Below are positions 31,661 to 49,583 of a DNA stretch of 64,000 nt, one piece after another. Position numbers and translations under genes: made by a program. Within the stretch, counting starts at the first letter, position 1, and each line of letters begins with the position of its first letter. This DNA comes from an uncultured Clostridia bacterium (GTDB lineage: Bacteria > Bacillota > Clostridia > Oscillospirales > Ruminococcaceae): assembly GCA_947304245.1 (NCBI GenBank), contig CAMZAK010000002.1:4977-68976 (forward strand). Direction: 5' to 3'. Under the pieces are notes generated by a model. It was given only the letters and a program-made list of their open reading frames with translations, was not told where the DNA came from and searched no databases.

Positions 31661-33043
31661 TCAACCATTATCGTTACTTTTAACCACTTTTTTAGAATTT
31701 TCTTTTATTTTTAATTTATGTTCTTTAGTTATTTTAAAAATCTTCGGGCTTAAAATTAATATTGCAATTAAATTAGGGTATGCCATTAAAGCATTAAAAA
31801 CATCAGATAAATGCCAAACAAGTTCCATTGCGCAAACTCCGCCAACTCCAATTGAAATTATGTAAATTATTCTATAAATTAAAACAAATTTATTGTTTTT
31901 AGTAATATATTTAATGGATTGTTCGGCGTAATAACACCAGCTCATTGTTGTTGTAAAACCAAAAAGCGCAGTCCCAATTCCTAAAATAATGTTGGAAAAA
32001 AAACCAACTTCTTTAGAAAAAGCAAACATTGTTAGTTGTTCTTTGTTTTCACACAACTCTAAAGCTCCAGTTGAAATAATAACTAATGCAGTCATTGTGC
32101 ATAAAACTATTGTGTTAAAAAACACTTCAAAAATTCCCCACTCACCCTGCTTAACCTTAGACTTAACATTAGAAGCAGCATGAGCAATAGGAGAAGAGCC
32201 AAGCCCAGCTTCACTAACAAAAACACTTCTAGAAATTCCATACTGCATAGCAGCATTAACACAATAACCAAGCCCCCCTCCAACAGAAGCTTTAAAATTA
32301 AATGCACTATTAAAAATTAACCTAAAACATTCTGGTATTACTGCAATATTTTTAAATATTATAAATAAAGAAATTAATATGTATGTTAAAGACATAAAAG
32401 GCACAATTCTTTCAGAAATTGCACCAACTCTTTTAATTCCTCCAATTATTATAACAAAAAAAACAATCATAACAACAATTGAAGTAATATATTTCGGAAC
32501 TCCAAACCCTTTTTCCAAGGCTATTGCAGCAGAATTAGTTTGCGTTGTGCTGCCTATTCCAAAAGAAGCTAAAATGCAAAAAACAGAGAAAATCTTTCCT
32601 AAAAACTTAAAATTAAGCCCTTTCTCCATAACATACATAGGGCCCCCGCAATAAAGCCCATCTCTACCTAAAACCCTATATTTAACAGAAAGCAAAACCT
32701 CGGAATATTTAAGCATCATTCCAAAAAAAGCACTAACCCACATCCAAAAAATGGCACCTGGCCCTCCTGTTACTAGTGCAGTTGCCACTCCGAAAATGTT
32801 CCCTGTTCCAATGCTTCCCGCTAAAGCTGTTGAAACAGCCTGAAAAGAAGAAATACCATCACTAGATTTTTCATCTTTTTTTATGCTTCCTATGGTGTTT
32901 TTTAAAATATCTTTCACATTAAATATTTGAAAAAAACCTGTAAAAACTGTAATATAAATCCCCACTCCTAAAATTAATGCTATTGTGCAAGGTCCCCATA
33001 AAAAATTTCTAAAATTTTTAACTAAAATTAAAAAAAACTCCAT
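31661..33043 (-). CDS. Alanine/glycine:cation symporter (AGCS family)
   Basis: 460 aa and about 11 TM helices. AGCS-like segments are present: ...GISSFQAVSTALAGSIGTGNIFGVATAL..GGPGAIFWMW.... Confidence 0.85.
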   Translation of the reverse strand: MEFFLILVKNFRNFLWGPCTIALILGVGIYITVFTGFFQIFNVKDILKNTIGSIKKDEKSSDGISSFQAVSTALAGSIGTGNIFGVATALVTGGPGAIFWMWVSAFFGMMLKYSEVLLSVKYRVLGRDGLYCGGPMYVMEKGLNFKFLGKIFSVFCILASFGIGSTTQTNSAAIALEKGFGVPKYITSIVVMIVFFVIIIGGIKRVGAISERIVPFMSLTYILISLFIIFKNIAVIPECFRLIFNSAFNFKASVGGGLGYCVNAAMQYGISRSVFVSEAGLGSSPIAHAASNVKSKVKQGEWGIFEVFFNTIVLCTMTALVIISTGALELCENKEQLTMFAFSKEVGFFSNIILGIGTALFGFTTTMSWCYYAEQSIKYITKNNKFVLIYRIIYIISIGVGGVCAMELVWHLSDVFNALMAYPNLIAILILSPKIFKITKEHKLKIKENSKKVVKSNDNG

Positions 33044-33154: not shown

Positions 33155-35041
33155 TTAACTTTTACTCCCTATTAAATCGTAAGCTAAATTGTTTTCTTTA
33201 GGAGAAGACCCATCAACACAATACCCCTGACTCTCATGTTCACCAGTTAAACTTACACCTCTTTTTATTGTTTTAAACATAATTCCAGTTGGAGAAGAAT
33301 TTCCTTCATTGAGTTTAAATGTTATTTTATATACATGTTCGGGAATAATTTTAATGTCTCCTAGTTTAAACCTTGTGGGTAAATCGCTTTTAAAGTCACA
33401 AGTGTTAAATTTTTCTTTAAACAAAATTTCTTTGCTTTTTTCATCACTAATTAAAACCTCTAGTTCGTGGTTAATTGGTCTATCTATCATAACATCTTTA
33501 AAAAATGTAACTCGCAGTTCATTTAAACTACTCATATCTTTAGCAGCTTTAAAATGTTGTTCTATTACACTGTCCCCATTTAAAGGTTCAAGGTAAACAT
33601 CATGAAAATAAATAAAATCATTTCTAACATAATATTTATTCCCACTAAAAAAAGACACTAAAAAACATAAAATGCAAGGCCCAACAAAAAATAAAAATAC
33701 GCTTAAAAATCTTAATCTAAATACTACGTTTTCCTGCTGAAAATTTTCATTAAAATTTGTTATTGTGTGTTTTGGGTGTTTAAACACAGCTCCTACTAAA
33801 AGTAATGCTGAAAAAAATGTGAAAAATAAATTGTAAGAATTTCTATCTTTTAAAAAGAAAAACAAATCTTTTAATCCATAAATTACATCTGTTGTGAAAG
33901 GAATGATTTTTTCTAATATACCTCTGAAAATTAATTTTTCGTCAACATTGCATTCATAAAATGTTATATTAATTAAACATAAAAACAAAAACAAAAATAT
34001 ATCTACTATGTAAAACACTCTGGCGTTTTTATTAATAACTGCAGAAAACAAAGTAAAAGGCACCATGAAAAGTAACCATTGTGGGTGCCAAAAACTAAGC
34101 CCAAAGGTTAAACAAACAACAACATTGCTAAAATACATCCCCCATTTGAAAACTTCTTCTTTTTCCACTAAGCTAACTTTTTTTAAATATGCCCACACAA
34201 CAACAAAAACCCATGCCACTAAAAATATGCTAATTTTAAAATATCCAGTGTTTAAACCACACCTTGTTAAATAGTTCGTGGCATAAAAACCTAAAACACC
34301 CAACTTAAATGCAGGAGAATGAACATAAAATAAAACCTCAATTGAAATTGGAATTAAAAAAATTAAACAATGCTTAATTATTTTTAAAACCTTCTTCTCT
34401 TTTAAAAAAAGCAATGGAACATAAACTAATAAAGCGAAATATTTAAAAGTCATTGCTATTCCAAAAAACACTGAAAACTTTAACATGTGGTTTTTAAAAT
34501 AGTAATATGTTCCAAGCAAAACAAAAAATAATGTGAAACTATCGTGCTGACTAAAAATTAAAGAGCTAAAAAATGCTAAAGGGGTTGTTAAGAACAAAAA
34601 AGAAATAACCCTACACTTTTTCTCACTAAACCCCATTAATTTAGCTATTTTAAAAATTAAATAAGCACTTCCAAAGAAAAACAAAACAGGCAAAGCCTTA
34701 TACCACATGGTTGCAATAAACGAGGTAGTGTTTATTGCATTCGTCATGGGAGCAGCCACAATTCCTAATAAATATATTGGAATATTCCATATTGCAAATA
34801 GTAAATATGCACTTGGCATGTAAACATTGTAAACAGGCTCAACCTTGTTAGCATAATTAAAATCGTAAAAATCTTTAAAATGCCCACCTAAAAATGAAAT
34901 TGAAGAAGCACCAGTTAGTAAAATATCTACATGAACAAAAACAAAAAAACACAACACCGCCATAAAGCCAAAAACAAACCAATCTAGTTTGTTTATTCTA
35001 GAATTTAAAAGATTTTCAATTTTTTTTAACTTCTCTTTCAT
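33155..35041 (-). CDS. Array paralog P1: unassigned membrane protein, about 13 TM helices plus a ~170-aa C-terminal non-membrane domain
   Basis: 628-aa ORF, collinear with P2-P5. Hydrophobic helices run from residue ~20 to ~460, followed by a hydrophilic beta-rich tail. Confidence 0.8.
   Translation of the reverse strand: MKEKLKKIENLLNSRINKLDWFVFGFMAVLCFFVFVHVDILLTGASSISFLGGHFKDFYDFNYANKVEPVYNVYMPSAYLLFAIWNIPIYLLGIVAAPMTNAINTTSFIATMWYKALPVLFFFGSAYLIFKIAKLMGFSEKKCRVISFLFLTTPLAFFSSLIFSQHDSFTLFFVLLGTYYYFKNHMLKFSVFFGIAMTFKYFALLVYVPLLFLKEKKVLKIIKHCLIFLIPISIEVLFYVHSPAFKLGVLGFYATNYLTRCGLNTGYFKISIFLVAWVFVVVWAYLKKVSLVEKEEVFKWGMYFSNVVVCLTFGLSFWHPQWLLFMVPFTLFSAVINKNARVFYIVDIFLFLFLCLINITFYECNVDEKLIFRGILEKIIPFTTDVIYGLKDLFFFLKDRNSYNLFFTFFSALLLVGAVFKHPKHTITNFNENFQQENVVFRLRFLSVFLFFVGPCILCFLVSFFSGNKYYVRNDFIYFHDVYLEPLNGDSVIEQHFKAAKDMSSLNELRVTFFKDVMIDRPINHELEVLISDEKSKEILFKEKFNTCDFKSDLPTRFKLGDIKIIPEHVYKITFKLNEGNSSPTGIMFKTIKRGVSLTGEHESQGYCVDGSSPKENNLAYDLIGSKS
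34533..35026. repeat. ~490-bp tract with no visible differences from 36442-36935 (P1/P2 5' regions)
   Basis: A line-by-line visual comparison found no differences across the tract. Flanking sequence has scattered substitutions. Confidence 0.8.
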
Positions 35042-35078: not shown

Positions 35079-36950
35079 CTAGCTCTTTTTCCCTATTAAG
35101 TCTAAAGCTAAATTGTTCTCTTTTTCTAAAGAACCATCAACAAAATAATATTCACCTTCTTTAAATTTAGCTGTTGTTTTAAATAATATATCGGTTAAAT
35201 TTGAATTTCCTTCGTTAAGCCTAAATGTTATTTTATATTCATTTTCAGGAATAATTTTAATTTCTCCTAATTTAAATCTTGTGGGAAACCCATTTTTAAA
35301 ATCACATGTGTTGAATTTTTCTTTAAACAATAAATTTTCATAATTTAAATCTTCAATTGAAATTTCTAGTTCATGGTTAATTGGGCGTTCCATTGAAACG
35401 TTTCTTGCAAATGCAACTCGCAGTTCATTTAAATTGTTCATTTCTTTTAGCGCTTTAAAATGTTGCTCAATTAGGCTATTTCCTTTTAATGGTTCTAAAT
35501 AATTAGAATAACAAGCTGAATTAATATTTTTAAAATAATAATATCTATTTCTACTCCCCAAAGAAATTAAAAAACATAAAATGCAAGGCCCAACAAAAAA
35601 TAAAAATACGCTTAAAAATCTTAATCTAAACACTACGTTTTCCTGCTGAAAATTTTCATTAAACTTTGTTATTGTGTTTTTTGGATTTTTAAACACCACT
35701 CCTACTAAAAGTAATGCTGAAAATAGTGTGAAAAATAAATTATAAGAATTTTTATCTTTTAAAAAGAAATACACATCTCTTAAACTATAAATTACATCTG
35801 TTTCAAAATCTAAAAATTTTCTTATAATTCCAAATCTTGCTAACCACTCATTCATATTTGTTTCAAAATATGTTATTCCTATTAAACACAAAAGCAAAAA
35901 CAAAAATATGTCCGCTATGTAAAACATTCTAGAGTTTTTGTTAATAACTGTAGTAAACAGTGTAAAAGGAACCATGAAAATTAACCATTGTGGATGCCAA
36001 AAACTAAGCCCAAAGGTTAAACAAACAACAACATTGCTAAAATACATCCCCCATTTGAAAACTTCTTCTTTTTCCACTAAGCTAACTTTTTTTAAATATG
36101 CCCACACAACAACAAAAACCCATGCCACTAAAAATATGCTAATTTTAAAATAGCCGGTGTCTAAAACGCATTTTATTAAATAATTTGTTGCTTGAAAACC
36201 TATAACACCAATTTTAAAAGCTGATGAATTAATGTAGCACAAAATTTCTATTGAAATTGGAATTAAAAAAATTAAACAATGCTTAATTATTTTTAAAATT
36301 TTCTTCTCTTTTAAAAAAAGCAATGGAACATAAATAAGTAGTGCAAAATATTTAAAAGTCATTGCTATTCCAAAAAACACTGTAAACTTTAACATGTGGT
36401 TTTTAAAATAGTAATATGTTCCAAGTAAAACAAAAAACAAAGTGAAACTATCGTGCTGACTAAAAATTAAAGAGCTAAAAAATGCTAAAGGGGTTGTTAA
36501 GAACAAAAAAGAAATAACCCTACACTTTTTCTCACTAAACCCCATTAATTTAGCTATTTTAAAAATTAAATAAGCACTTCCAAAGAAAAACAAAACAGGC
36601 AAAGCCTTATACCACATGGTTGCAATAAACGAGGTAGTGTTTATTGCATTCGTCATGGGAGCAGCCACAATTCCTAATAAATATATTGGAATATTCCATA
36701 TTGCAAATAGTAAATATGCACTTGGCATGTAAACATTGTAAACAGGCTCAACCTTGTTAGCATAATTAAAATCGTAAAAATCTTTAAAATGCCCACCTAA
36801 AAATGAAATTGAAGAAGCACCAGTTAGTAAAATATCTACATGAACAAAAACAAAAAAACACAACACCGCCATAAAGCCAAAAACAAACCAATCTAGTTTG
36901 TTTATTCTAGAATTTAAAAGATTTTCAATTTTTTTAAATTTTCCTTTCAT
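35079..36950 (-). CDS. Array paralog P2
   Basis: 623-aa ORF. The N-terminal ~190 aa are identical to P1 except for the first few residues, and part of the C-terminal domain is shared with P3. Confidence 0.8.
   Translation of the reverse strand: MKGKFKKIENLLNSRINKLDWFVFGFMAVLCFFVFVHVDILLTGASSISFLGGHFKDFYDFNYANKVEPVYNVYMPSAYLLFAIWNIPIYLLGIVAAPMTNAINTTSFIATMWYKALPVLFFFGSAYLIFKIAKLMGFSEKKCRVISFLFLTTPLAFFSSLIFSQHDSFTLFFVLLGTYYYFKNHMLKFTVFFGIAMTFKYFALLIYVPLLFLKEKKILKIIKHCLIFLIPISIEILCYINSSAFKIGVIGFQATNYLIKCVLDTGYFKISIFLVAWVFVVVWAYLKKVSLVEKEEVFKWGMYFSNVVVCLTFGLSFWHPQWLIFMVPFTLFTTVINKNSRMFYIADIFLFLLLCLIGITYFETNMNEWLARFGIIRKFLDFETDVIYSLRDVYFFLKDKNSYNLFFTLFSALLLVGVVFKNPKNTITKFNENFQQENVVFRLRFLSVFLFFVGPCILCFLISLGSRNRYYYFKNINSACYSNYLEPLKGNSLIEQHFKALKEMNNLNELRVAFARNVSMERPINHELEISIEDLNYENLLFKEKFNTCDFKNGFPTRFKLGEIKIIPENEYKITFRLNEGNSNLTDILFKTTAKFKEGEYYFVDGSLEKENNLALDLIGKKS
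36442..36935. repeat. Partner of the 34533-35026 tract
   Basis: Same comparison as above, at an offset of 1909 bp. Confidence 0.8.
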
Positions 36951-37002: not shown

Positions 37003-38931
37003 CTAATCTTTTTCACCCTTTTTTCCTATTAAGTCGTAAGCTAAATTGTTTTCTTTAGAAGAAGACCCATCAACACAATACCATTGATTGTTAACATCCC
37101 CTATTAAATTAAAAATTTTTTCTTCAATACCACGAATTGAATCTTTTTTTGTTGTTTTAAACATAATTCCAGTTGGATTAGAATTTCCTTCATTGAGTTT
37201 AAATGTTATTTTATATACATGTTCGGGAATAATTTTAATTTCTCCTAATTTAAATCTTGTGGGAAACCCATCTTTAAAGTCACATGTGTTGAATTTTTCT
37301 TTAAACAATAAATTTTCATAATTTAAATCTTCAATTGAAATTTCTAGTTCATGGTTAATTGGGCGTTCCATTGAAACATTTCTTGCAAATGCAACTCGCA
37401 GTTCATTTAAATTAGTCATTTCTTTTGGAGCTTTAAAATGTTGCTCTATTACGCTGTTTCCGTTTAATGGTTCTGTGTAAACATCATAAAAACAAACGTT
37501 ATTATTTCTAACGTAATATTTATTCCCACTAAAAAAAGACATTAAAACACATAAAAAACACGGCCCAACAAAAATTAAAAATGTGCTTAGAAATCTTAAC
37601 CTGAACAATCCATTCTCTCTTTTAAAATTTTCATTAAACCTTGTTATTGTAAATTTCGGATGTTTAAACACAGCTCCTACTAAAAGTAGTGCTGAAAATA
37701 ATGTGAAAAATAAATTATAAGAGTTTTTGTCTTTTAAAAAGAAAAACACATCTTTTAAACCATAAATTATCTCCGTCTTAAAATCTAAAAATTTATTTAT
37801 TACTCCCAAACACATAAGCCATTCATCAACATTCATTTCAAAAAATGTTACACTTATTAAAGACAAAAACAAAAATAAAAATATATCTATTATGTAAAAC
37901 ACCCTAGCGTTTTTATTAATAACTGTAGAAAACAAGGTAAAGGGAACCATAAAAAGTAACCATTGTGGGTGCCAAAAACTAATTCCAAATATTAAACAAA
38001 CCACACCATTACTAAAATACATCCCCCATTTGAAAACTTCTTCTTTTTCCACTAAGCTAACTTTTTTTAAATATGCACACACGACAACAAAAACCCATGC
38101 CATAACAAATATGCTAAGTTTAGCATAACCAGTGTTTAAGAAACATTTTGTTAAATAATTCGTTGCTTGAAAACCCAAAACACCCTGCTTAAAAGCCGGT
38201 GAACTAATGTAGAACAAAGTCTCTATTGAAATTGGAATTAAAAAAATTAAACAATGCTTAATTATTTTTAAAATTTTCTTCTCTTTTAAAAAAAGCAATG
38301 GAACATAAATAAGTAGTGCAAAATATTTAAAAGTCATTGCTATTCCAAAAAACACTGTAAACTTTAACATGTTGTTTTTAAAATAATAATAAACACCCAA
38401 CAAAACAAAAAACAAAGTGAAAGAGTCATACTGACCAAAAATTAGTGAGCTGAAAAATGCTAATGGTGTTGTTAAAAACAAAAAAGCAATAATTTTAGCT
38501 TTATTTTTAGTAAACCCAATTAATTTAGATATTTTAAAAATTAAATAACCACAACCTAAAAAAAACAAAACAGGCAAAGCCTTATACCACATCGTTGTTA
38601 AAAAACCCCAACCTCTAAATTTATAACTTGAATTTATAGGGCATACAACTATTTTTAATAAATATAACGGAATATTCCATATTGCAAATAGTAAATATGT
38701 GCTTGGCATGTAAACATTGTAAACAGGTTCAACCTTGTTAGCATAATTATAGTCATAAAAATCTTTAAAATGTCCACCTAAATATGAAATTGAAGAACCT
38801 CCAGTTGCCACAATATCTCCATGGGCAAAAACAACAAAACATATCATTACCATAAAAAAAATAATAAACCAATCTAATTTATTAATCTCATAATTTAAAA
38901 TTTTTCTAATTTTTTTAAATTTTCCTTTCAT
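37003..38931 (-). CDS. Array paralog P3
   Basis: 642-aa ORF. It shares long tracts with no visible differences with P5, a central block with P4 and P5, and a C-terminal tract with P2. Confidence 0.8.
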   Translation of the reverse strand: MKGKFKKIRKILNYEINKLDWFIIFFMVMICFVVFAHGDIVATGGSSISYLGGHFKDFYDYNYANKVEPVYNVYMPSTYLLFAIWNIPLYLLKIVVCPINSSYKFRGWGFLTTMWYKALPVLFFLGCGYLIFKISKLIGFTKNKAKIIAFLFLTTPLAFFSSLIFGQYDSFTLFFVLLGVYYYFKNNMLKFTVFFGIAMTFKYFALLIYVPLLFLKEKKILKIIKHCLIFLIPISIETLFYISSPAFKQGVLGFQATNYLTKCFLNTGYAKLSIFVMAWVFVVVCAYLKKVSLVEKEEVFKWGMYFSNGVVCLIFGISFWHPQWLLFMVPFTLFSTVINKNARVFYIIDIFLFLFLSLISVTFFEMNVDEWLMCLGVINKFLDFKTEIIYGLKDVFFFLKDKNSYNLFFTLFSALLLVGAVFKHPKFTITRFNENFKRENGLFRLRFLSTFLIFVGPCFLCVLMSFFSGNKYYVRNNNVCFYDVYTEPLNGNSVIEQHFKAPKEMTNLNELRVAFARNVSMERPINHELEISIEDLNYENLLFKEKFNTCDFKDGFPTRFKLGEIKIIPEHVYKITFKLNEGNSNPTGIMFKTTKKDSIRGIEEKIFNLIGDVNNQWYCVDGSSSKENNLAYDLIGKKGEKD

Positions 38932-38982
38932 TGCGCCCCCATGAATTTGAAATTTGTTATTTAATGTAGCACATTTACTAAA

Positions 38983-40923
38983 CTAATCTTTTTCACCCTT
39001 TTTTCCTATTAAATCGTAAGCTAAATTATATTCTTTAGGAGAAGATCCGTTAACACAATACCACTGCTCATTAGGGTTCCCCACTATTTCTGTTTTGGTT
39101 TCTTCCATGTTTGGGTTTGGTCCTTTTCTTGTTGTTCTAATAATAACATTGGTTAAATTAGAATTTCCTTCGTTAACTTTAAATATAATCTTATATTCAT
39201 TTTCAGGAGTTATTTTAACATCTCCTAGTTTAAACCTTGTTGGGAAATTATTTTTTAAAAAACTCATACTGAAATTTCTTTTTAATAAAATTTCTTCACT
39301 TTTCACATCTTGGATTAAAATTTCTAGTCCGTTGTTAATTGATTGAACTCCTGCAGGGTTTTTTAAAAAAACAACTCTAAGCTCGGTTAAATTGTTCATT
39401 TCTTTTGGTGCTTTAAAATGTTGCTCTATTACACTGTCCCCGTTTAAAGGTTCAATGTTGGTTGTAAAACAATATGCATTAGTATTTCTAAAATAATATT
39501 TTTCCCCACTCACCAAAGACATTAAAACACATAAAACACATGGCCCAACAAAAAATAAAACCAAACTTGAAAACCTCAACCTGAACAGTACATTTTCTCT
39601 TTTAAAATTTTCATTAAACCTTGTTATTGTAAACTTTGGGTGTTTAAACACCACTCCAACCAAAATTAAAACCGAAAACAATGTAAAAAGAGCACTACAA
39701 ATTTTTTTATCTCTCAAAAAAAAGAATATATCTTTTAAACTAATAATTAATTCTGAATTATAGTTAACAACTTTTTTTAAAATGCCCCCTCTTAGCAATC
39801 TGTCGTCCACATTATATTCAAAATAAGCAACATTAATTAAGCTCATAAACAAAAATAAGAATATATCTATTATGTAAAACACCCTAGCGTTTTTATTAAT
39901 AACTGCTGAAAACAAGGTGAAAGGAACCATAAAAAGTAACCATTGTGGATGCCACATACTAAGCCCAAAGGTTAAACAAACAACAATATTACTAAAATAG
40001 ATTGCCCACTTGAAAAGTTCTTCTTTTTCTTTAACTTCAATATTTTTTAAATATGCCCACACGACAACAAAAACCCATGCCATTAAAAATATGCTAAGTT
40101 TAGCATAACCAGTGTCTAAGAAACACTTTGTTAAATAGTTCGTTGCTTGAAAACTCAAAACTCCCAATTTAAAGTCTGGTGAATGAATGTAGCACAAAGT
40201 TTCAATTAAAATTGGAATTAAAAAAATTAAACAATGCTTAATTATTTTTAAAATTTTCTTCTCTTTTAAAAAAAGCAATGGAACATAAATAAGTAGTGCG
40301 AAATATTTAAAAGTCATTGCTATTCCAAAAAACACTGAAAACTTTAACATGTTATCTTTGAAATAGTAATATATTCCCAACAAAACAAAAAACAAAGTGA
40401 AAGAATCATACTGACCAAAAATTAGTGAGCTAAAAAATGCTAGTGGTGTTGTTAAAAACAAAAAAGCAATAATTTTAGCTTTATTTTTAGTAAACCCAAT
40501 TAATTTAGATATTTTAAAAATTAAATAACCACAACCTAAAAAAAACAAAACAGGTAAAGCCTTATACCACATTGTTGCAACAAATGGAGTGGCATTTATT
40601 GCATCCGTCATGGGAGCAGCCACAATTCCAAGTAAATATATTGGAATATTCCATATTGCAAATAAAATATATGTGCTTGGCATATAGTTATTGTAAATGG
40701 GATATGGCTCTACTTTGTTTAACCTGTTGTAGGTGTATGCGTCTTTAATATGCCCATCTAAATAGGAAATTGAAGAGCCCCCTGTAGACATAATATCTCC
40801 ATGCACAAATGCAACAAAACAAAACATTGCTATGAAAAAAAACATAAACCAATCTAGTTTATTAATTTCATGATTTGGAAAGTTTTTAATTTTTTTTATA
40901 ATATTAAAAAAATATTTCTTCAT
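38983..40923 (-). CDS. Array paralog P4
   Basis: 646-aa ORF. It has the most divergent ectodomain (…NPAGVQSINNGLEILIQDVKSEEILLKRNFSMSFLKNNFPTRF…). Confidence 0.8.
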   Translation of the reverse strand: MKKYFFNIIKKIKNFPNHEINKLDWFMFFFIAMFCFVAFVHGDIMSTGGSSISYLDGHIKDAYTYNRLNKVEPYPIYNNYMPSTYILFAIWNIPIYLLGIVAAPMTDAINATPFVATMWYKALPVLFFLGCGYLIFKISKLIGFTKNKAKIIAFLFLTTPLAFFSSLIFGQYDSFTLFFVLLGIYYYFKDNMLKFSVFFGIAMTFKYFALLIYVPLLFLKEKKILKIIKHCLIFLIPILIETLCYIHSPDFKLGVLSFQATNYLTKCFLDTGYAKLSIFLMAWVFVVVWAYLKNIEVKEKEELFKWAIYFSNIVVCLTFGLSMWHPQWLLFMVPFTLFSAVINKNARVFYIIDIFLFLFMSLINVAYFEYNVDDRLLRGGILKKVVNYNSELIISLKDIFFFLRDKKICSALFTLFSVLILVGVVFKHPKFTITRFNENFKRENVLFRLRFSSLVLFFVGPCVLCVLMSLVSGEKYYFRNTNAYCFTTNIEPLNGDSVIEQHFKAPKEMNNLTELRVVFLKNPAGVQSINNGLEILIQDVKSEEILLKRNFSMSFLKNNFPTRFKLGDVKITPENEYKIIFKVNEGNSNLTNVIIRTTRKGPNPNMEETKTEIVGNPNEQWYCVNGSSPKEYNLAYDLIGKKGEKD

Positions 40924-41069
40924 TTAGCTATGCCGTCCTGCCATATTATACAACTAAAAATTTAAACTAATGCAATGCAAACAAAATAATAATAAATTAT
41001 AAAATATTTCTTAATCTCTAAAATATTTAAATAAGTAAAATTTAAATAAAACAATTTTAAAACGCTTAC

Positions 41070-41098
41070 ACAATATCATTAAATTTTATTGTTGTCAA
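41070..41098 (-). promoter_or_regulatory. Candidate internal promoter in the 230-bp P5-P4 spacer
   Basis: On the minus strand: TTGACA (41098-41093), 17 nt, TATTGT (41075-41070). Confidence 0.3.
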
Positions 41099-41153
41099 CC
41101 GCAAAATTTACTATAACTATCTTCAAAATATAAAATATTTTATTACGCTATTT

Positions 41154-43118
41154 TTATCTTTCCTTTTTTCCTATTAAATCGTAAGCTAAATTATTGTCTT
41201 TAGGAGAAAACCCTTTAATACAATACCATTGATTTTTAAAATCACCAACTAAACTAGATTTTTTTCCGTCTAACCCTGGGTTTGGCCCTTTTTTTGTTGT
41301 TTTAAACATAATTCCAGTTGGATTAGAATTTCCTTCATTGAGTTTAAATGTTATAACATATTCATTTTCAGGAATAATTTCAACATCTCCTAATTTAAAT
41401 TTTGTTGGAAACTCATTTTTAAAATCACATGTATCATATTTTTCACTAAACAAAACTTCATTGTTGCAAATATCTTCAATTGAAATTTCTAGTTCATGAT
41501 TAATTGGACGTTCTATTGAAAGATTCTTTAAAAATACAACTCGCAATTCATTTAAATTAGTCATATTTTTAGGTGCTTTAAAGTGTTGCTCTATTACACT
41601 ATCCCCATTTAAAGGTTCATTGTGAACATCATAAAAATATCCATTACTGTTTCTAAAATAATATTTTTCTCCACTTGCTAAAGACATTAAAACACATAAA
41701 ACACATGGCCCAACAAAAAATAATACTAAACTTAAAAATCTTAACCTGAACAATCCATTCTCTCTTTTAAAATTTTCATTAAACCTTGTTATTGTAAATT
41801 TCGGATGTTTAAACACAGCTCCTACTAAAAGTAGTGCTGAAAATAATGTGAAAAATAAATTATAAGAGTTTTTGTCTTTTAAAAAGAAAAACACATCTTT
41901 TAAACCATAAATTATCTCCGTCTTAAAATCTAAAAATTTATTTGAAAGCCCAAAATACATAAGCCATTCGTCAATATGCGTTTCAAAAAATGTTACACCT
42001 AATAAACAAAAAAACAAAAACAAAAGTATATCTATTATGTAAAACAACCTAGCGTTTTTATTAATAACTGCAGAAAACAAGGTGAAAGGAACCATGAAAA
42101 TTAACCATTGTGGATGCCAAAAACTAAGTCCAAAGGTTAAACAAACAACAACATTACTAAAATAGATTGCCCACTTGAAAAATTCTTCTTTTTCTTTAAC
42201 TTCAACATTTTTTAAATATGCACACACGACAACAAAAATCCATGATATTACAAAAATACTAAGTTTAGTATAACCAGTGTCTAAAACACATTTTTTTAAA
42301 TAATTTTTTGCATTAAAACCAAAAACTCCTAATTTAAAATCTGGTGAATGAATGTAGCCTAAAATCTCTATTAAAATTGGAACTGAAAAAATTAAACAAT
42401 GCTTAATTATTTTTAAAATTTTCTTCTCTTTTAAAAAAAGCAATGGAACATAAATAAGTAGTGCAAAATATTTAAAAGTCATTGCTATTCCAAAAAACAC
42501 TGTAAACTTTAACATGTTGTTTTTAAAATAATAATAAACACCCAACAAAACAAAAAACAAAGTGAAAGAGTCATACTGACCAAAAATTAGTGAGCTGAAA
42601 AATGCTAATGGTGTTGTTAAAAACAAAAAAGCAATAATTTTAGCTTTATTTTTAGTAAACCCAATTAATTTAGATATTTTAAAAATTAAATAACCACAAC
42701 CTAAAAAAAACAAAACAGGCAAAGCCTTATACCACATTGTTGCAAAAAACGGAGTGGTGCTTACTGCATCTTTCATAGGACATTTTACAATATTTAATAA
42801 ATATATGGGAATATTCCATATCGCAAATAATAAATATGTGCTTGGAAAATAGTGATTTGATGTAATTGATGGTTCCACTTCATTAACTATATTATAATAA
42901 TAAGGATCTTTTATGTCTCCCCATAAATAAGATATTGAAGATCCTCCTGTTAACAATATATCTGAATGAACAAAGTTTAAAAAACAAAATGCCACAAAAA
43001 TAAAAAAAACAAACCAATCTAATTTGTTAATTTCATGGTTTGGAAAGTTTTTAATTTCATTTTTTTTATATAATTTAGTATTATTTAAATTAAAGATATT
43101 ATTTTCATTAGACACCAT
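41154..43118 (-). CDS. Array paralog P5 (first gene of the array)
   Basis: 654-aa ORF with a longer, distinct N-terminus (MVSNENNIFNLNNTKLYKKNEIKNFPNHEINKLDWF...). Confidence 0.8.
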   Translation of the reverse strand: MVSNENNIFNLNNTKLYKKNEIKNFPNHEINKLDWFVFFIFVAFCFLNFVHSDILLTGGSSISYLWGDIKDPYYYNIVNEVEPSITSNHYFPSTYLLFAIWNIPIYLLNIVKCPMKDAVSTTPFFATMWYKALPVLFFLGCGYLIFKISKLIGFTKNKAKIIAFLFLTTPLAFFSSLIFGQYDSFTLFFVLLGVYYYFKNNMLKFTVFFGIAMTFKYFALLIYVPLLFLKEKKILKIIKHCLIFSVPILIEILGYIHSPDFKLGVFGFNAKNYLKKCVLDTGYTKLSIFVISWIFVVVCAYLKNVEVKEKEEFFKWAIYFSNVVVCLTFGLSFWHPQWLIFMVPFTLFSAVINKNARLFYIIDILLFLFFCLLGVTFFETHIDEWLMYFGLSNKFLDFKTEIIYGLKDVFFFLKDKNSYNLFFTLFSALLLVGAVFKHPKFTITRFNENFKRENGLFRLRFLSLVLFFVGPCVLCVLMSLASGEKYYFRNSNGYFYDVHNEPLNGDSVIEQHFKAPKNMTNLNELRVVFLKNLSIERPINHELEISIEDICNNEVLFSEKYDTCDFKNEFPTKFKLGDVEIIPENEYVITFKLNEGNSNPTGIMFKTTKKGPNPGLDGKKSSLVGDFKNQWYCIKGFSPKDNNLAYDLIGKKER

Positions 43119-43184
43119 GATGAAACATCACACCCTTTTTTAAATGAAGTAATTCTTAAATATTTGCATTAATTCCACACCCGC

Positions 43185-43213
43185 TTGACAAAACATATTT
43201 ATAATTTTAAAAT
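43185..43213 (+). promoter_or_regulatory. Candidate SigA promoter of the potABCD operon
   Basis: TTGACA (43185-43190), 17 nt, TAAAAT (43208-43213), about 45 nt upstream of the potA ATG. Confidence 0.4.
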
Positions 43214-43259
43214 TATTTTAATTTTATAAATATATTTATATTTTATTTTTTTGGAAATT

Positions 43260-44651
43260 ATGAATATGAAAAATTTTAAGCACATAATTGAATTAAAAAA
43301 TATTTCTATTTCTTTTAATAAAGAAGTAATATTAGAAAATTTTAATATAAAAATTAAAAGTGGGAAATTTGTTACACTTTTAGGCCCTTCTGGGTGTGGT
43401 AAAAGCACCATATTAAAAATAATAGCTGGCCTTTTAAAACCAGACTCCGGTGAAACCATTTTTAACGGGGAAAACATAACAAATTTGCCGCCATACAAAA
43501 GAAACATAAACACTGTTTTTCAAAGGTATGCTCTTTTTTCACACCTTAATGTTTTTGAAAATATTGCTTTTGGTCTTAAAATTAAAAATTTGCCAAAAGA
43601 TGAAATTAAAGAAAGAGTTTTAAACATTTTAAAAACAGTTAACCTAAAAGGTTTTGAAAAAAGAAAACCATTTCAGCTTTCAGGAGGCCAACAACAAAGA
43701 GTTGCAATAGCAAGAGCACTAGTAAACAGGCCAAAACTGCTCCTTTTAGACGAACCCCTTTCTGCCTTAGACGTAAACCTTAAACAGGAAATGCAGTTTG
43801 AACTAAAAGAAATGCAGCAAAATTTAAACACAACATTTGTTTACGTAACGCACGACCAAGAAGAAGCACTAACAATGAGCGATTTTGTTGTTGTAATGAA
43901 CGAAGGAGAAATTCAACAAATTGGAACACCTCAAGAAATTTACAATGAACCACAAAATGCCTTTGTGGCAGATTTTATTGGCCAAAGTAACATTTTAAAT
44001 GGAACCATGGTTAAAGACTACAGAATTTCTTTTGCTAACGAAGTTTTTGAATGCGTGGACAAAGGCTTTGAAAAAAACCAACCAGTGGACCTTGTAATTA
44101 GGCCTGAAGACATTTTAATTGTACCTGAAGGAGAAGGAAAGTTTAACGGAGTAGTAGACACCATTGTTTTTAAAGGTGCGCATTTTGAGTTGGAAATTTT
44201 AGCAAGAAACATATATTGGCTTGTGCACACAACAAAATATTACGAAAAAGGAAAAAAAGTTGGGCTTAATTTTTCTCCGGACGACATACACATAATGCCA
44301 AAACTTTTTGAACAATCCACAAACATAATAAAAGCTGTTGCAGTAGATGAACAAACAATTAGTTTTTTAGATGTGGAATTTAAAACAAATGAGTTTAAAT
44401 TAAAAGCTAATTCTAAAGTTAAATTAATTATTCCTCCTAAGAGCATAAGTCTTGTTTCAACAGATTCAGCAGACTTGGTTTTAACGCTAGACTCCATAAT
44501 TTATAAAGGTTCTTACAATGAAATGTATTTTTACTATGAAGATGAAGATGAAAACGATGGCTACATTTTAGTTAATTCGGAATATGAAGAAGAAGTTGGA
44601 ACAAAACTAGGGCTTAAATTTAATTTTAATGAGGTGAAAATTTTAAATTGA
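43260..44651 (+). CDS. potA: Spermidine/putrescine ABC transporter ATPase PotA, with an extra C-terminal domain
   Basis: GPSGCGKST, LSGGQQQRVAIARAL, LLLDEPLSALD and TOBE-like regions. The protein is ~460 aa, longer than the ~370 aa I recall as typical. The ORF-track TTG at 43251 is also possible. Confidence 0.85.
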   Translation: MNMKNFKHIIELKNISISFNKEVILENFNIKIKSGKFVTLLGPSGCGKSTILKIIAGLLKPDSGETIFNGENITNLPPYKRNINTVFQRYALFSHLNVFENIAFGLKIKNLPKDEIKERVLNILKTVNLKGFEKRKPFQLSGGQQQRVAIARALVNRPKLLLLDEPLSALDVNLKQEMQFELKEMQQNLNTTFVYVTHDQEEALTMSDFVVVMNEGEIQQIGTPQEIYNEPQNAFVADFIGQSNILNGTMVKDYRISFANEVFECVDKGFEKNQPVDLVIRPEDILIVPEGEGKFNGVVDTIVFKGAHFELEILARNIYWLVHTTKYYEKGKKVGLNFSPDDIHIMPKLFEQSTNIIKAVAVDEQTISFLDVEFKTNEFKLKANSKVKLIIPPKSISLVSTDSADLVLTLDSIIYKGSYNEMYFYYEDEDENDGYILVNSEYEEEVGTKLGLKFNFNEVKILN

Positions 44652-45466
44652 AAAAGCATTATTTAACTTTTACTCCTTATTGCATTTGGATTTTTCTTTT
44701 CATTTTAACTCCAACTTTTGTTGTTTTAATTTTTGCTTTTTTAAATGAAAACTCTAACTTCACATTAGAAAATTTTTTAAACATTAAAAACTATTTTGGA
44801 GTAATTTTAAAATCTTTAGGCTACACCACAGCTGCAACTTCTTTGTGCTTTTTTCTAGCATACCCAATTTCATATTTTGCAAGCAAAATTAAAAGTAACA
44901 TGTTTAAAAAAATATTCATAATAGCAATTTCTCTTCCAATGTGGACAAATCTTCTTCTAAGGACATATTCCTGGATGACCATTCTAGAAAACAACGGCAT
45001 TTTAAACAACATTTTAAAATCTTTAAACTTAAGCCCACTAAAAATAATGAACACTCCAATTGCAGTAATAATTGTTATGGCTTACGACTTTTTGCCTTTT
45101 ATGATAATCCCTATCTATAATTCTATTTGTAAAATAGATGAAAATTTAATTCAAGCGGGAGAAGACCTAGGAGCAAACAATTTTAAAATATTTAAACTAA
45201 TTATTCTGCCACTCTCCATGCCGGGAATTTTATCTGGTTTTTCAATTGTTTTTGTTTCTTGTGCTTGTTGTTTTTTCATTCCTCGTCTTTTAGGAGGAGG
45301 TTTTAATGTTTTAATTGGAGAATTAATAGAGTCTCAGTTTATGGGCAGTGTTTATAACCCTTGGTTTGGCTCTGCCATTTCAATTTTCTTTATGCTTTTA
45401 ATTATATTAATAATTAAAATAACTCAAAAATTTAATAAAACAGAAACAGAAAATCTAACAATTTAA
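44648..45466 (+). CDS. potB: Spermidine/putrescine ABC permease PotB (TTG start overlapping the potA TGA)
   Basis: 6-TM permease with an EAA-like loop (…IQAGEDLGANNFKIFKLIILP…). Its position is consistent with a pot operon. Confidence 0.8.
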   Translation: MKKHYLTFTPYCIWIFLFILTPTFVVLIFAFLNENSNFTLENFLNIKNYFGVILKSLGYTTAATSLCFFLAYPISYFASKIKSNMFKKIFIIAISLPMWTNLLLRTYSWMTILENNGILNNILKSLNLSPLKIMNTPIAVIIVMAYDFLPFMIIPIYNSICKIDENLIQAGEDLGANNFKIFKLIILPLSMPGILSGFSIVFVSCACCFFIPRLLGGGFNVLIGELIESQFMGSVYNPWFGSAISIFFMLLIILIIKITQKFNKTETENLTI

Positions 45467-45497
45467 AATAAATAAATTACGGAGAATTTTTTTTATT

Positions 45498-46304
45498 ATG
45501 TATAATGTTTCATCTAAAATTGTTTCTAAAATGTCTTTTGCTTTCATCTTTCTTTTTTTATATATCCCAATTTTCATTGTAATTATTTTTGCATGCAATA
45601 GCAGCAAATCTCGCTGTGTTTTTGAAAGCTTTACTTTAAAATGGTTTTCAGAACTTTTTAAAGATAAAATAATTTTAGAAGCTTTTTTTAATTCTTTAAT
45701 TTTAGCTTTAATCTCTGCCATTATTGCAACGGTTATTGGAACACTAGCCGCTTTAAAAATAACTAAATTAAAAAAAAGTAAACAAAACATTTTCACAGGT
45801 TTAAACTATATTCCAATAATTAACTCAGACGTTATAACTGGTGTTTCTTTAATGCTGTTTTTAAAATTTTTTCTAAATATTTTTAATAAAGATTTTGGCT
45901 TTACAACAGCACTAATAGCTCACATAACAATTACCATGCCCTATGTTGTTCTTTTCGTTATGCCAAAAATTAAACAAATTGAACCAAACACACTAAATGC
46001 AGCGCTAGACCTTGGCTGTTCCCCTAACATGCTGTTTTTTAAAATAATTCTGCCAAACATAGCACCTTCAATTGTTGGAGCTTTTATGATGGCTTTTGCC
46101 ATTTCTTTTGATGATTTTACAATTTCATATTTCACAGTAGGGGACTCTTTTCAAACTTTGCCGGTTTTAATATATTCCATGGTTAGAAGAAGAATAACTC
46201 CAAAAATTAATGCCCTTTTTGCAATAATATTTATTTTAGTTATTTTAATTTTAATATTAATTAACATTTTAAACATAAATTCAAATAAGTCTAAAGAAAT
46301 TTAA
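45498..46304 (+). CDS. potC: Spermidine/putrescine ABC permease PotC
   Basis: 6-TM permease with an EAA-like loop (…LNAALDLGCSPNMLFFKIILP…). Confidence 0.8.
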   Translation: MYNVSSKIVSKMSFAFIFLFLYIPIFIVIIFACNSSKSRCVFESFTLKWFSELFKDKIILEAFFNSLILALISAIIATVIGTLAALKITKLKKSKQNIFTGLNYIPIINSDVITGVSLMLFLKFFLNIFNKDFGFTTALIAHITITMPYVVLFVMPKIKQIEPNTLNAALDLGCSPNMLFFKIILPNIAPSIVGAFMMAFAISFDDFTISYFTVGDSFQTLPVLIYSMVRRRITPKINALFAIIFILVILILILINILNINSNKSKEI

Positions 46305-46316
46305 TTGGAGAAAACA

Positions 46317-47420
46317 ATGAAAAAAATTATGCTAGCATCGTCAACATTATTTCTAATAATTGCAGTAATAATAACTATAAATTTAACTCAAAAAAACAAT
46401 AATTTTAAAAACGGCGAGATTAAAATTTTTTGTTGGGGACAATACATAGCAGACGGAACAGAAAACTCACTTTCTGTTTTAGATGAATTTGAAAAAGAAA
46501 ACAAGGTTAAAATTAAATCTTTCAACACATTCGAATCTTGTGAGCAGATGTACACAAAACTAAAAAGCAAAAATTGCTCCTACGACATTGTTTTTTCTTC
46601 AGACTACATGGTTAAAAAACTAATTGACGAAAATTTAATTATGCCAATTGAAAAGTCTTCTCTTAAAAACTATGAAAACATTTCAGATGATTTTAAAGGA
46701 GAAAGATGGGGGTTTGACACAACAAATTCCTATAGTGTTCCCTACTGTTGGGGGCATATAGGGCTAATATATAACAAAAAACTAGTTGAAAAGTTAACAG
46801 GAGAAGAAGCAGAAAAAGTTGTAAAGGGCTGGGATGCACTATGGAATGAAAAACTAAAACAAAACATTTTAATGTTTATTAATGCAAAAGACAGCTTTTC
46901 TGTTGCCTTAAAACTTTTAAATAAATCTTTAAACACAACAAATGAAGAAGACATTTTAAAAGCTGCAGAAATTTTAAAAAAACAAAAACCTCTAGTTCAG
47001 GCCTACGTAATGGATGAAATGTTCGACAAAATGGAAAACAACGAAGCTGCAATTTCTGTTGCTTATTCTGGAGACATTGTTAAAATGCTTAAAAACAATA
47101 AAAATTTAAAATATTGCTTTCCAAAACAAGGCTCTAACATTTTCATAGATGCAGTATGCATTCCAAAAAACTCTAAAAACAAAGAAAACGCTTTAAAATT
47201 CATAGATTTTTTATGCAGAGAAGACATAGCTCTAGAAAATGCAAAATTTTTAGGCTACTCCACACCAAACAAAAAAGCTTACAGCAATTTAAGCGAAAAC
47301 TTTAAAAATGAAATATCTTACCCCAAAAAAGAAATATTAAATAAATGTGAAATTTATCTGCCAACTCCCAAAAAACTAACAAACTTAATAGAAACACTAT
47401 GGGTTAAAATTAGAAGTTAA
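46317..47420 (+). CDS. potD: Spermidine/putrescine-binding protein PotD (lipoprotein/secreted)
   Basis: MKKIMLASSTLFLIIAV signal anchor and PotD-like body (…YDIVFSSDYMV…YSVPYCWG…). ATG at 46317 follows ggag. Confidence 0.8.
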   Translation: MKKIMLASSTLFLIIAVIITINLTQKNNNFKNGEIKIFCWGQYIADGTENSLSVLDEFEKENKVKIKSFNTFESCEQMYTKLKSKNCSYDIVFSSDYMVKKLIDENLIMPIEKSSLKNYENISDDFKGERWGFDTTNSYSVPYCWGHIGLIYNKKLVEKLTGEEAEKVVKGWDALWNEKLKQNILMFINAKDSFSVALKLLNKSLNTTNEEDILKAAEILKKQKPLVQAYVMDEMFDKMENNEAAISVAYSGDIVKMLKNNKNLKYCFPKQGSNIFIDAVCIPKNSKNKENALKFIDFLCREDIALENAKFLGYSTPNKKAYSNLSENFKNEISYPKKEILNKCEIYLPTPKKLTNLIETLWVKIRS

Positions 47421-47482: not shown

Positions 47483-48532
47483 CTATTTACGTTTCTTTTT
47501 ATGTTTTTTAGTTTGTTTAATTTCTTTATTACCTTCTTTGTTTTCTTTGTTTTGTTGTTTTAATTTTGCGAGTTCTTCTCTTAACCTTGCTATTTCTTCT
47601 TCATTTTCTTTAATTGTTAAATTGTTTTTTTCAATATATTCTTCTTGTTCTTTTAATTCAGATTCTTTTTTTTTATTAGCATCATCATAATTTAAAATTT
47701 TTACACCATTATCTATGCTTATTTGTTTAGACATCTTATTTAAATTTTTTAATTCAGTATTTTTAGCTTTTAATTCATCGTTACTATGTTGTTTAGAAAA
47801 ATTCAACATAATATTGCTCTTTTGTTTAATTTCTTCATCTATTTTTTTAGTTTCATCTTCTAGGCTTTTTAGTTCCAACTCTTTTTCTTTTAATAATTTG
47901 TTTTCTTCATTTTCTTGTTTTATTCTTTCTAGTTCTTCTTTCAGCCTCTTTATTTCTTCTTCATTTTCTTTAATTACTAAATTGTTATTTGCAATATCTT
48001 TTTCTTGCTTTTTTAAAATAATATTGCTCTTTTGTTCAATTTCTTCATCTGTTTTTTTAACTTCATCTTCTAATCTTTTTAATTCCAACTCTTTTTCTTT
48101 TAATAATTTGTTTTCTTCATTCTGTTTTTTTAATTTTGCGAGTTTTTTTCTTAACCTTGCTATTTCTTCTTCATTTTCTTTAATTACTAAATTGTTTTTT
48201 TCAATATATTCTTCTTGTTCTTTTAATTCAGATTCTTTTTTTTTATTAGCATAATCATAATTTAAAATTTTTACACCATTATCTATGCTTATTTGTTGAG
48301 ACATCTTATTTAAATTTTTTAAACCGGCATTTCTACGTTTTAATTCATCGTTACTATGTTGTTTAGAAAAATTTAACATAATATTGCTTTTTTGTTTAAT
48401 TTCTTCATCTATTTCTTTAAGTTCCTCTTCTAGGCTTTTTAGTTCCAACTCTTTTTCTTTTAATAATATGTTTTCATAATTACTACTAAAATTAAAATTC
48501 ATATTTTTATTAAAATTATTAATACTAGACAT
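47483..48532 (-). CDS. CC1: K/E/N-rich coiled-coil protein with large internal repeats
   Basis: 349-aa ORF with no signal peptide or TM helix and heptad-like KE-rich sequence. A ~115-aa unit occurs twice. Confidence 0.65.
   Translation of the reverse strand: MSSINNFNKNMNFNFSSNYENILLKEKELELKSLEEELKEIDEEIKQKSNIMLNFSKQHSNDELKRRNAGLKNLNKMSQQISIDNGVKILNYDYANKKKESELKEQEEYIEKNNLVIKENEEEIARLRKKLAKLKKQNEENKLLKEKELELKRLEDEVKKTDEEIEQKSNIILKKQEKDIANNNLVIKENEEEIKRLKEELERIKQENEENKLLKEKELELKSLEDETKKIDEEIKQKSNIMLNFSKQHSNDELKAKNTELKNLNKMSKQISIDNGVKILNYDDANKKKESELKEQEEYIEKNNLTIKENEEEIARLREELAKLKQQNKENKEGNKEIKQTKKHKKKRK
47560..48475. repeat. Intragenic direct repeats in CC1 (~345-bp units at 47560-47905 and 48130-48475, with a shorter related unit between them)
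   Basis: The units align at an offset of 570 bp with few substitutions (ttaattttgcgagtt...cttaaccttgctatttcttcttcattttctttaatt...). Confidence 0.8.
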
Positions 48533-48559
48533 TGCATCACCCCCTTTTTTTAATTAACA

Positions 48560-49546
48560 CTATTTATTTTGTTTTTTAGCTTCTTCAATTTCAGCTTTCA
48601 ATTTTTTAATAATTTCTTCTTGATCTTTAATAGTAGCATATTGTTCATCTAATTTTTTGCTATTTTCATCTAAACTAACACTAGTTTTTATATAAATTTC
48701 TTTTACTGCTATAAGTGTATTTGTTTCTTTTTCAATTAATTTTTCATAACATGCATTTTCTTTATTTAAACGTTCATTCTCTTCATTTAAAAGTTCTCTC
48801 TCTTTTAAAAATTCTTCTTTTTTTGATTCGAATTTTTTCTTTTGTTTTTCAATATAATTATTCCTTGCCTCTAATTTTTTTCTTTTTTCTTCTAACTCTT
48901 TTCTTTTTTCTGCAATTTTTTTGTTTAATTCATCCAATTTGCTTTGGTTTGAATTTTTGTTTTGATTTAAATCTTTATTTTGGTTTAAAGGCTCGTTTTC
49001 AACTAAAGCATCATTTAACAAAAAGTATTCTTTAGAATCATTATTTTTTTTAGAATCTTTAAAAAAATTAGCGGGTAAAATTTTATTTTTATCATATTCA
49101 ATTTTTTCGTCTATTTTCTCTAAATTTTTATTTTTTTGCTCGCCATTAGTTTCTGATGATATGTTTTTTTTCTCAGATTTAAATAAATTATTAGCAGACA
49201 TTGATGGTTTTAACCGTTTTTTAAAGTTCTCATTTTCACTAGGTTTAACACTTTCACTTATTTTCTCTAAATTTTTATTTTCTTTAGTTTTTAATAAATC
49301 ATTTAATAATGTTTCCATGTTTTTTTTTGTAGACTTCCAAAATTCTGAAGATTTCAACTCCAATTTAAAATTCTTGTTTTCATCCGTTTTTAATAAATTT
49401 TTTTTCGAAATTTTTATTAAATTGTTACTAGAAAGTGTTAATTTCAACTCTGGTTTGTTTTGTTTATTCTCTCTTCTAATTGCTTTTACATTATTATTTT
49501 CAAAAAAATCAAATTTCTTAACATGCATATTACTGTTATTATTCAT
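48560..49546 (-). CDS. CC2: K/E/N-rich protein with a coiled-coil C-terminal half
   Basis: 328-aa ORF. The C-terminal motif IKDQEEIIKKLKAEIEEAKKQNK resembles the CC1 unit end IKENEEEIARLREELAKLKQQNK. Confidence 0.6.
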   Translation of the reverse strand: MNNNSNMHVKKFDFFENNNVKAIRRENKQNKPELKLTLSSNNLIKISKKNLLKTDENKNFKLELKSSEFWKSTKKNMETLLNDLLKTKENKNLEKISESVKPSENENFKKRLKPSMSANNLFKSEKKNISSETNGEQKNKNLEKIDEKIEYDKNKILPANFFKDSKKNNDSKEYFLLNDALVENEPLNQNKDLNQNKNSNQSKLDELNKKIAEKRKELEEKRKKLEARNNYIEKQKKKFESKKEEFLKERELLNEENERLNKENACYEKLIEKETNTLIAVKEIYIKTSVSLDENSKKLDEQYATIKDQEEIIKKLKAEIEEAKKQNK

Positions 49547-49583
49547 TATTTTAAACCTCTCTTTTTTTAAATTATAAATTTAA

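Follow-up and report, generated by a model that had tools for sequence, protein, structure and literature searches.

We examined a 64,000-nt stretch of DNA from an uncultured Clostridia bacterium (GenBank assembly GCA_947304245.1, contig CAMZAK010000002.1, positions 4,977 to 68,976; hereafter the window), which carries five consecutive, intact paralogous open reading frames (ORFs) on its minus strand. These genes, P1 to P5, encode predicted membrane glycosyltransferases of 623-654 aa and form a mosaic: the copies show an overall nucleotide identity of 77-86%, all five of them share patches of exact or nearly exact identity with adjacent as well as non-adjacent partners (at least seven separate tracts), and no single duplication tree can account for the array. 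The best explanation, in our view a very probable one, is recurrent ectopic gene conversion among old tandem paralogs. The source is a draft genome of an uncultured Clostridia lineage with a reduced genome (40 contigs, 1.06 Mb, no Ns, N50 35 kb, 27% GC), of which the array takes up ~0.94%.

Results

Identical tracts shared among the five copies

Identical tracts were located by an exact-match search among P1-P5 (Table 1). The longest belongs to P1 and P2, which also have a second one; P3 and P5, which are not neighbors, share three, and P2 and P3 share two, while P1 and P3 have runs of 60-65 nt in common. Part of the longest P3/P5 tract is exact in P4 as well, and within it alignment positions 661-739 are identical in four copies. 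Identity along one pair, followed in a sliding window, ranges from 55% to 100%, and the transitions can be abrupt: at the left border of the 352-nt tract, mismatches drop from 15-18 per 30 nt to 0. The identity between P1 and P2 ends at codon ~6 and does not extend into the upstream spacer. Besides the exact tracts, P2 and P3 are 98-99% identical at alignment positions 1576-1710, where 1-2 differences remain.

The first-pass annotation of the window had pointed to two stretches, of about 208 and about 300 bp, that appeared identical between P3 and P5. The former is exact over 208 nt, its start in P5 being corrected from 41735 to 41736; the latter is also exact and longer, at 352 nt. As had been stated, the intervening P4 differs in the 208-nt tract, where P3-P4 and P4-P5 identity is 69-78% vs 100% for P3-P5. 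Our alignment also bears out that a block, KALPVLFFLGCGYLIFKISKLIGFTKNK..., is common to P3, P4 and P5, with another version, FFFGSAYLIFKIAKLMGFSEKK..., common to P1 and P2. The pattern had nevertheless been under-described, because the mosaic spans all five copies and not P3 and P5 only.

Segment trees and divergence

Over the 675 polymorphic sites of the alignment, the longest identical runs cover 178 sites for P1/P2, 78 for P3/P5 and 57 for P2/P3. When the site order was permuted 5000 times, the longest run of any pair reached a maximum of 27 (mean of the per-permutation maxima, 13.5; p <= 2e-4). The pairwise homoplasy index (PHI) lies 19 standard deviations under its permutation mean (z = -19, p < 5e-4), and the 246 informative sites hold all ten possible 2|3 splits, clustered along the gene.

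Segment trees were built with FastTree, and their topologies were compared by approximately unbiased (AU) tests. A backbone tree, ((1,2),3,(4,5)), is found at alignment positions 1-400, 701-1080 and 1351-1530, and three others are found elsewhere: ((3,5),4,(1,2)) at 401-700, ((3,5),2,(1,4)) at 1081-1350 and ((2,3),5,(1,4)) at 1531-1710. The AU tests reject the backbone topology at 401-700 (p = 0.03) and at 1531-1710 (p = 0.017), and reject the alternative topologies in the backbone segments; at 1081-1350 they separate no topologies, and the tract there rests on the exact-run test. Segment-wise phylogenies and a recombination test had been proposed with the first-pass annotation, and both, as incongruent segment trees and a significant PHI, agree with its view that serial tandem duplication alone is insufficient and that segments were exchanged among copies; the ten splits and the AU tests lead to the same result.

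Synonymous divergence (dS) sets the tracts apart from their surroundings, being ~0 within them vs ~1 outside. In the N-terminal region dS is 0.9-1.3 for all pairs but those among P1-P3, where it falls to 0.03 for P1/P2 and to 0.5-0.6 for P1/P3 and P2/P3; in the middle region, pairs that include P4 reach 1.1-1.4. The ratio of nonsynonymous to synonymous divergence (omega) is 0.2-0.6 in every region and for every pair; all five genes are intact and under purifying selection. The high dS, the purifying selection and the identical tracts together therefore describe old paralogs that have all been kept functional and were recently patched.

Table 1. The five paralogs, the tracts that they share and the sequences flanking the array (window coordinates).
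Feature	Position	Strand	Remarks
P1	33155-35041	-	628 aa, predicted GT-C-type membrane glycosyltransferase paralog; weak or no Pfam match; final gene of the array, adjoins the Na:Ala symporter gene; ORF list, alignment
P2	35079-36950	-	623-aa paralog; ORF list, alignment
P3 (P0001)	37003-38931	-	642-aa paralog; model: multi-helix membrane domain (residues 1-468) and C-terminal beta-sandwich (470-640)
P4	38983-40923	-	646-aa paralog; most divergent at alignment 1126-1340 and in the C-terminal domain
P5	41154-43118	-	654-aa paralog; opens the array, transcribed divergently from potA
P1/P2 exact tract, 494 nt	34533-35026 = 36442-36935	-	codons ~6-170
P1/P2 second exact tract, 158 nt	34086-34243 = 35995-36152
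P2/P3 exact tract, 151 nt	36247-36397 = 38222-38372	-
P2/P3 exact tract, 98 nt	35302-35399 = 37280-37377		inside the C-terminal domain
P3/P5 exact tract, 352 nt	38241-38592 = 42386-42737	-	P3 residues 114-230, membrane core; exact-match search
P3/P4/P5 exact tract, 111 nt	38464-38574 = 40444-40554 = 42609-42719	-	inside the 352-nt tract
P3/P5 exact tract, 208 nt	37591-37798 = 41736-41943	-	P3 residues 379-447; exact-match search
P3/P5 exact tract, 67 nt	37143-37209 = 41288-41354		exact-match search
P5-P4 spacer	40924-41153	-	230 nt; promoter-like TTGACA-17-TGnTATTGT at 41098-41070 (consensus match only)
Na:alanine (Na:Ala) symporter gene	31661-33043	-	flanks the array beyond P1
P5-potA gap	43119-43250		132 nt
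potABCD operon	43251-47420	+	flanks the array beyond P5, divergent
potA	43251-44651	+	466-aa product

Predicted fold and function

The five proteins are, as far as structure prediction can tell, membrane glycosyltransferases of the GT-C fold. An AlphaFold2 model of P3, computed from a 97-sequence alignment, has a mean predicted local distance difference test score (pLDDT) of 90.8 and a predicted template modeling score (pTM) of 0.92. It places ~13 membrane helices in residues 1-468, in agreement with hydropathy and with the 8-13 or more helices of the GT-C architecture, followed by a C-terminal beta-sandwich (residues 470-640). When the membrane domain was compared with the PDB by Foldseek, nearly all matches were GT-C enzymes (probability 0.98-1.0; target-normalized TM-score, TMt, 0.44-0.56), namely EmbC (7bvh), GPI-MT-I (9wno), ALG6 (6snh), ALG3 (9s6r, TMt 0.56), PimE (9dm5, TMt 0.51), ArnT (5f15), ALG12 and ALG9. 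The C-terminus of P3 matched jelly-roll, PHR, GOLD, Cwp84 lectin-like and BcsB-type beta-sandwich domains. Two acidic residues, Asp39 (in an HGD motif) and Asp57, lie in the loop just after the first transmembrane helix; all 97 homologues (31-77% identity) have both, and they correspond to the acidic motif reported from the first loop of GT-C enzymes (PMC8035078). From its lysine- and arginine-rich composition and the positive-inside rule, the N-terminus would be cytoplasmic, with the C-terminal domain outside.

Clues to a role come from distant homologues (36-37% identity; Eubacterium maltosivorans and a metagenomic lineage), whose gene lies directly beside a GtrA-family gene and a gene for a GT2 protein of ~320 aa; these glycan-synthesis loci also hold sugar-nucleotide enzymes and a priming phosphoglycosyl transferase. 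The combination of GT-C, GtrA and GT2 is a signature of multi-component transmembrane glycosylation systems (PMC8035078). The genome studied here has one GtrA-family gene, on contig C5, and on contig C29 a gene for a 324-aa GT2 protein with two C-terminal transmembrane helices, whose alignment to PgfS and to ArnC is full-length but scores below their cut-offs. Since GtrA and GT2 genes adjoin the distant homologues and candidates for both partner types are encoded in this genome, the paralogs most likely take a sugar from polyprenyl phosphate and attach it, on the external side of the membrane, to a polymer of the cell wall or to a surface protein. Acceptor specificity would then depend on the variable loops and on the C-terminal domain.

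Two observations count against this assignment. All matches to the Pfam GT87 and EpsG models stay under the gathering thresholds, and no glycan-synthesis genes of this genome are linked to the array. For GT87 (PF09594, PimE-like/DUF2029; threshold 25 bits), the weak match spans residues ~110-230 and scores 24.7 bits for P5, 20.0 for P4, 19.5 for P3 and 16.4 for P2; P1 has no match. Searches of the paralogs against NCBIfam returned no match, nor did a sequence search of the PDB, even with a profile.

Relatives and origin of the array

The family occurs in 5 of the 11 genomes of the genus, with more than one copy solely in the present genome and at most 46% identity to the others; across the order it is a rarity, present in 2 of 301 genomes. 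A single copy stands at the same site in a genus relative (G001, locus L006) and in the NCBI assembly GCA_978015915.1 (L022), where an HpcH/HpaI-family gene, the GT-C gene and the Na:Ala symporter gene follow one another beside potABCD. The array has therefore arisen by local expansion. The HpcH/HpaI-family aldolase gene, which lies between potA and the GT-C gene in these two relatives, is missing from the window, where the P5-potA gap takes its place.

A related array comes from another metagenome, on a contig of 2955 nt (L011) that holds two or more copies in tandem, each with ~80% identity to every one of the five paralogs. In the middle region and the C-terminal domain, the partial copy X1 of that contig clusters with P4 (support 0.94), and a further copy, X2, nests among the window paralogs. 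The grouping of X1 with P4 means that at least some paralog types, the P4 type among them, predate the split of the two organisms, which fits the high dS. About 24 nt past the stop of the complete copy, L011 also carries (at 2857-2955) an open frame, KFKLGDVKIKSENEYVIMFRLKEGN, that is an orphan piece of the C-terminal domain with no gene body before it. The contig ends at this point, and the piece may be left over from a deletion or be an artefact of the contig end.

No array of the same or a sister kind was found in the genome-contig search, and metagenome contigs gave only distant single matches (28-46%); in the protein collection there were only the five proteins of the window and one 72% relative on the 2955-nt contig. 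A search with the C-terminal 263 aa for truncated ORFs found nothing. As to the affiliation of the organism, the nearest named relatives of its RelA are from Massilioclostridium, Anaerotruncus and Oscillospiraceae, at ~50% identity.

Exact repeats elsewhere in the genome

Exact k-mer matching over the genome revealed 48 direct repeats that are exact over 100 nt or more, the longest over 888 nt, most of them inside contigs. Another mosaic tandem family lies at 17103-25502 of contig C1, with at least four tandem paralogs of 524-758 aa that have N-rich 'MINNINN...' N-termini; its first and third copies are exactly identical over stretches of 360, 367, 269 and 135 nt that lie ~4430 nt apart. Neighboring paralog pairs with exact tracts are also present at C9:18886-21047 (888 nt), C1:127498-131468 (639 nt) and C5:8776-14503 (346 nt).

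Gene conversion as the probable explanation, and its alternatives

In the favored account, the five glycosyltransferase copies are old tandem duplicates, which diverged to a dS of ~1 wherever they were left untouched. Homologous recombination between misaligned copies would then repeatedly have overwritten ~60-500 nt of one copy with the sequence of another, in an ectopic and non-reciprocal manner and between adjacent and non-adjacent copies alike, and so have produced a mosaic whose segments follow trees of their own. The mechanism would be RecA-dependent conversion by the general recombination machinery. Such machinery is available, because the genome encodes RecA, RecJ, SbcCD and MutS/MutL: RecJ and the sbcDC pair lie within the window (SbcC is seen in the syntenic L022), and the genome also has genes for RecA, MutL, MutS and a MutS2-like protein. 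Loss of mismatch repair was considered as the cause of exchange between copies that are 77-86% identical, and is ruled out by the presence of MutS and MutL.

Some points weigh against gene conversion as the whole account. The tracts are known from one assembly, on which both the linkage across the 150-500-nt tracts and the distinction between exact and near identity rest; a single genome shows neither the direction of transfer nor its non-reciprocity; and some junctions could stem from unequal crossover while the array grew or shrank. This last process, if taken as the only one at work, would form hybrid genes by repeated expansion and contraction with no conversion patches at all. It is a known behavior of tandem arrays, and the copy number does vary, from 1 in the genus relatives through at least 2 in L011 to 5 here; the orphan C-terminal-domain coding piece after a complete copy in L011 and the likeness of the P3-P2 and P4-P3 spacers also speak for it. 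One such event, however, predicts identity from the junction across the whole repeat unit, whereas the observed tracts are short internal patches; P3 and P5 share tracts although P4 between them differs, and the P1/P2 identity halts at codon ~6 and is absent from the upstream spacer. Sequence with a dS of ~1 lies to either side of the tracts, which therefore favor conversion patches over simple unequal crossover. We thus hold it quite improbable that crossover did all of this; non-reciprocal conversion (or double crossover) fits better than a single unequal crossover, and unequal crossover probably contributed to the changes in copy number. Nor can the likeness of P3 and P5 be ascribed to duplication of a two-gene unit (P5P4 to P3P2), a candidate that we rejected: P2 and P4 would then be expected to correspond but are among the least similar pairs (77%), and P3 and P5 are alike only in patches.

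An assembly artefact, that is, a chimeric or consensus-collapsed path through the repeat graph of a strain mixture in the metagenome bin, deserves attention in a 40-contig draft whose five proteins are found on just one contig of the protein collection, all the more so as the related array was fragmented to a 2955-nt contig in a MEGAHIT k141 assembly. Mislinkage would nevertheless keep the signal, as diverged sequence flanks each tract whichever flanks are joined. The same assembly crosses many exact repeats of 200-888 nt inside contigs, without Ns; the five ORFs are intact, alike in length and have an omega below 1; and the survival of the near-identical P2/P3 tract with its 1-2 differences indicates that variants were not all flattened. 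We therefore judge an artefact improbable. The idea that nothing was exchanged, and that the tracts are segments that never diverged under extreme protein, codon or RNA constraint, can draw on the 352-nt tract, which encodes the most conserved membrane core and contains the positions identical in four copies (661-739), but has next to no chance of being right. Constraint alone is excluded because synonymous sites are identical too in the tracts, because P1 and P2 hold another version of the block at 79-81% nucleotide identity, and because the identical places differ from pair to pair; the identity of only 69-78% that P4 retains in the 208-nt tract and the jump of dS from ~0 inside the tracts to ~1 outside go the same way.

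The first-pass annotation had likened the exchange to that of variable surface-gene families. As regards the recombination process the likeness stands; it fails in that these are enzymes in five full-length, constrained copies, without sign of an expression-site/silent-cassette system. A programmed diversification locus of the pilE/pilS or vlsE type, in which targeted conversion switches an expressed surface phenotype, would be in keeping with recurrent recent exchange, with the shuffling in sub-blocks of outward-facing variable loops and C-terminal domain, and with the share of a 1.06-Mb genome that is devoted to the array (~0.94%). It is very improbable all the same, given five complete copies with start codons, short spacers and purifying selection, and given that unrelated paralog families of the same genome are equally patchy, which points to general recombination. 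Neither truncated, promoterless or silent cassettes nor family fragments were found elsewhere in the genome; a search for slippery repeats gave none beyond A8/T8 runs in this 27% GC genome and no simple-sequence repeats, and one for invertons gave no credible inverted repeats, all candidates being of low complexity with 70-78% complementarity. There is thus no support for programmed antigenic variation, and the conversion seems to be of the kind that tandem paralogs undergo in general.

Comparison with known systems and significance

The process is well-known ectopic gene conversion, or partial concerted evolution, and involves no new mechanism. Cases have been described for the tandem lpl lipoprotein cluster of Staphylococcus aureus (PMC2568036), for rRNA operons (PMC8022953) and for antigen families of M. 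tuberculosis (PMC13061034). The present array resembles them in its identity tracts with diverged borders, its discordant segment trees and its tandem arrangement, for which general recombination machinery suffices; it differs in that an uncharacterised GT-C family is involved, with five copies and at least seven tracts in a 1-Mb genome of one strain. What is new is limited to a well-documented instance in an unannotated GT-C subfamily.

With regard to function, the three-component systems of Gram-positive bacteria (a GtrB/CsbB-type GT-A polyprenyl-P-sugar synthase, a GtrA/GtcA flippase and a GT-C enzyme, e.g. YfhO or GtlB; reviewed in PMC8035078) have in common with the array the predicted GT-C fold, the invariant acidic residues of the first loop and an extracytoplasmic domain, to which the candidates for the two partner types in this genome and the GtrA and GT2 neighbors of the distant homologues may be added. 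Unlike in those systems, there is no sequence membership in YfhO or other characterised families, the array lies away from its presumed partners, and there are five paralogs instead of one. In structure, the membrane domain comes closest to PimE/GT87 (9dm5) and the ALG3/ALG6/ALG12-type enzymes (9s6r, 6snh, 9s6t), with a probability of 1.0 and a TMt of 0.44-0.56; yet sequence identity to them is 10-16%, the Pfam scores lie below threshold, and those enzymes are without a C-terminal beta-sandwich. The EmbC-EmbA-EmbB proteins of mycobacteria (7bvh) are likewise tandem GT-C paralogs with a C-terminal extracytoplasmic beta-rich domain, which is carbohydrate-binding in Emb. EmbC is the strongest GT-C match by E-value (6.3e-4), with a poor overall fit (query-normalized TM-score, TMq, 0.24). 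Unlike the array proteins, the Emb proteins have ~1,035-1,100 aa (the 7bvh chain has 1,035 aa) and an arabinan substrate.

The analysis suggests what fold and, probably, what role belong to a widespread but unannotated Firmicutes family, whose homologues are labelled 'hypothetical' or, weakly, DUF2029/GT87, and provides a clean, statistically solid example of ectopic conversion in a strongly reduced genome. For annotation and phylogeny the lesson is that trees of such paralogs are meaningless unless built per segment. One may go further and regard the array as a module-shuffling toolkit, in which conversion would keep a shared donor-binding or catalytic membrane core matched and would recombine the outer loops and sub-blocks of the beta-sandwich. 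We consider this rather unlikely, and none of our results point to selection for the exchange, which may be incidental. If true, it would provide new acceptor specificities and strain-level variation of surface glycans, e.g. under phage or host pressure, and could be a general, so far undescribed route to GT-C diversification in bacteria.

Genomic setting of the array

The array is flanked by the Na:alanine symporter gene on one side and by the divergent potABCD operon on the other (Table 1). Its genes are separated by spacers of 37 nt (P1-P2), 52 nt (P2-P3), 51 nt (P3-P4) and 230 nt (P4-P5). The first three are just 37-52 nt long, so P4 to P1 are probably co-transcribed. No terminator-like sites were found inside the array, and this, together with the promoter-like site in the P5-P4 spacer, suggests that the array genes are probably co-expressed.

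Two further features of the neighborhood were recorded. For the potA product, the best above-cut-off NCBIfam match is not the E. coli PotA model but the Mycoplasma-type model MMSYN1_0197, an unusual result in a Clostridia-like genome. Beyond the operon, at 47483-50585, three successive ORFs of 328-349 aa without an NCBIfam match lie on the minus strand, the first of which contains a pair of 104-nt direct repeats (47537-47640 and 47897-48000) that are 83% identical.

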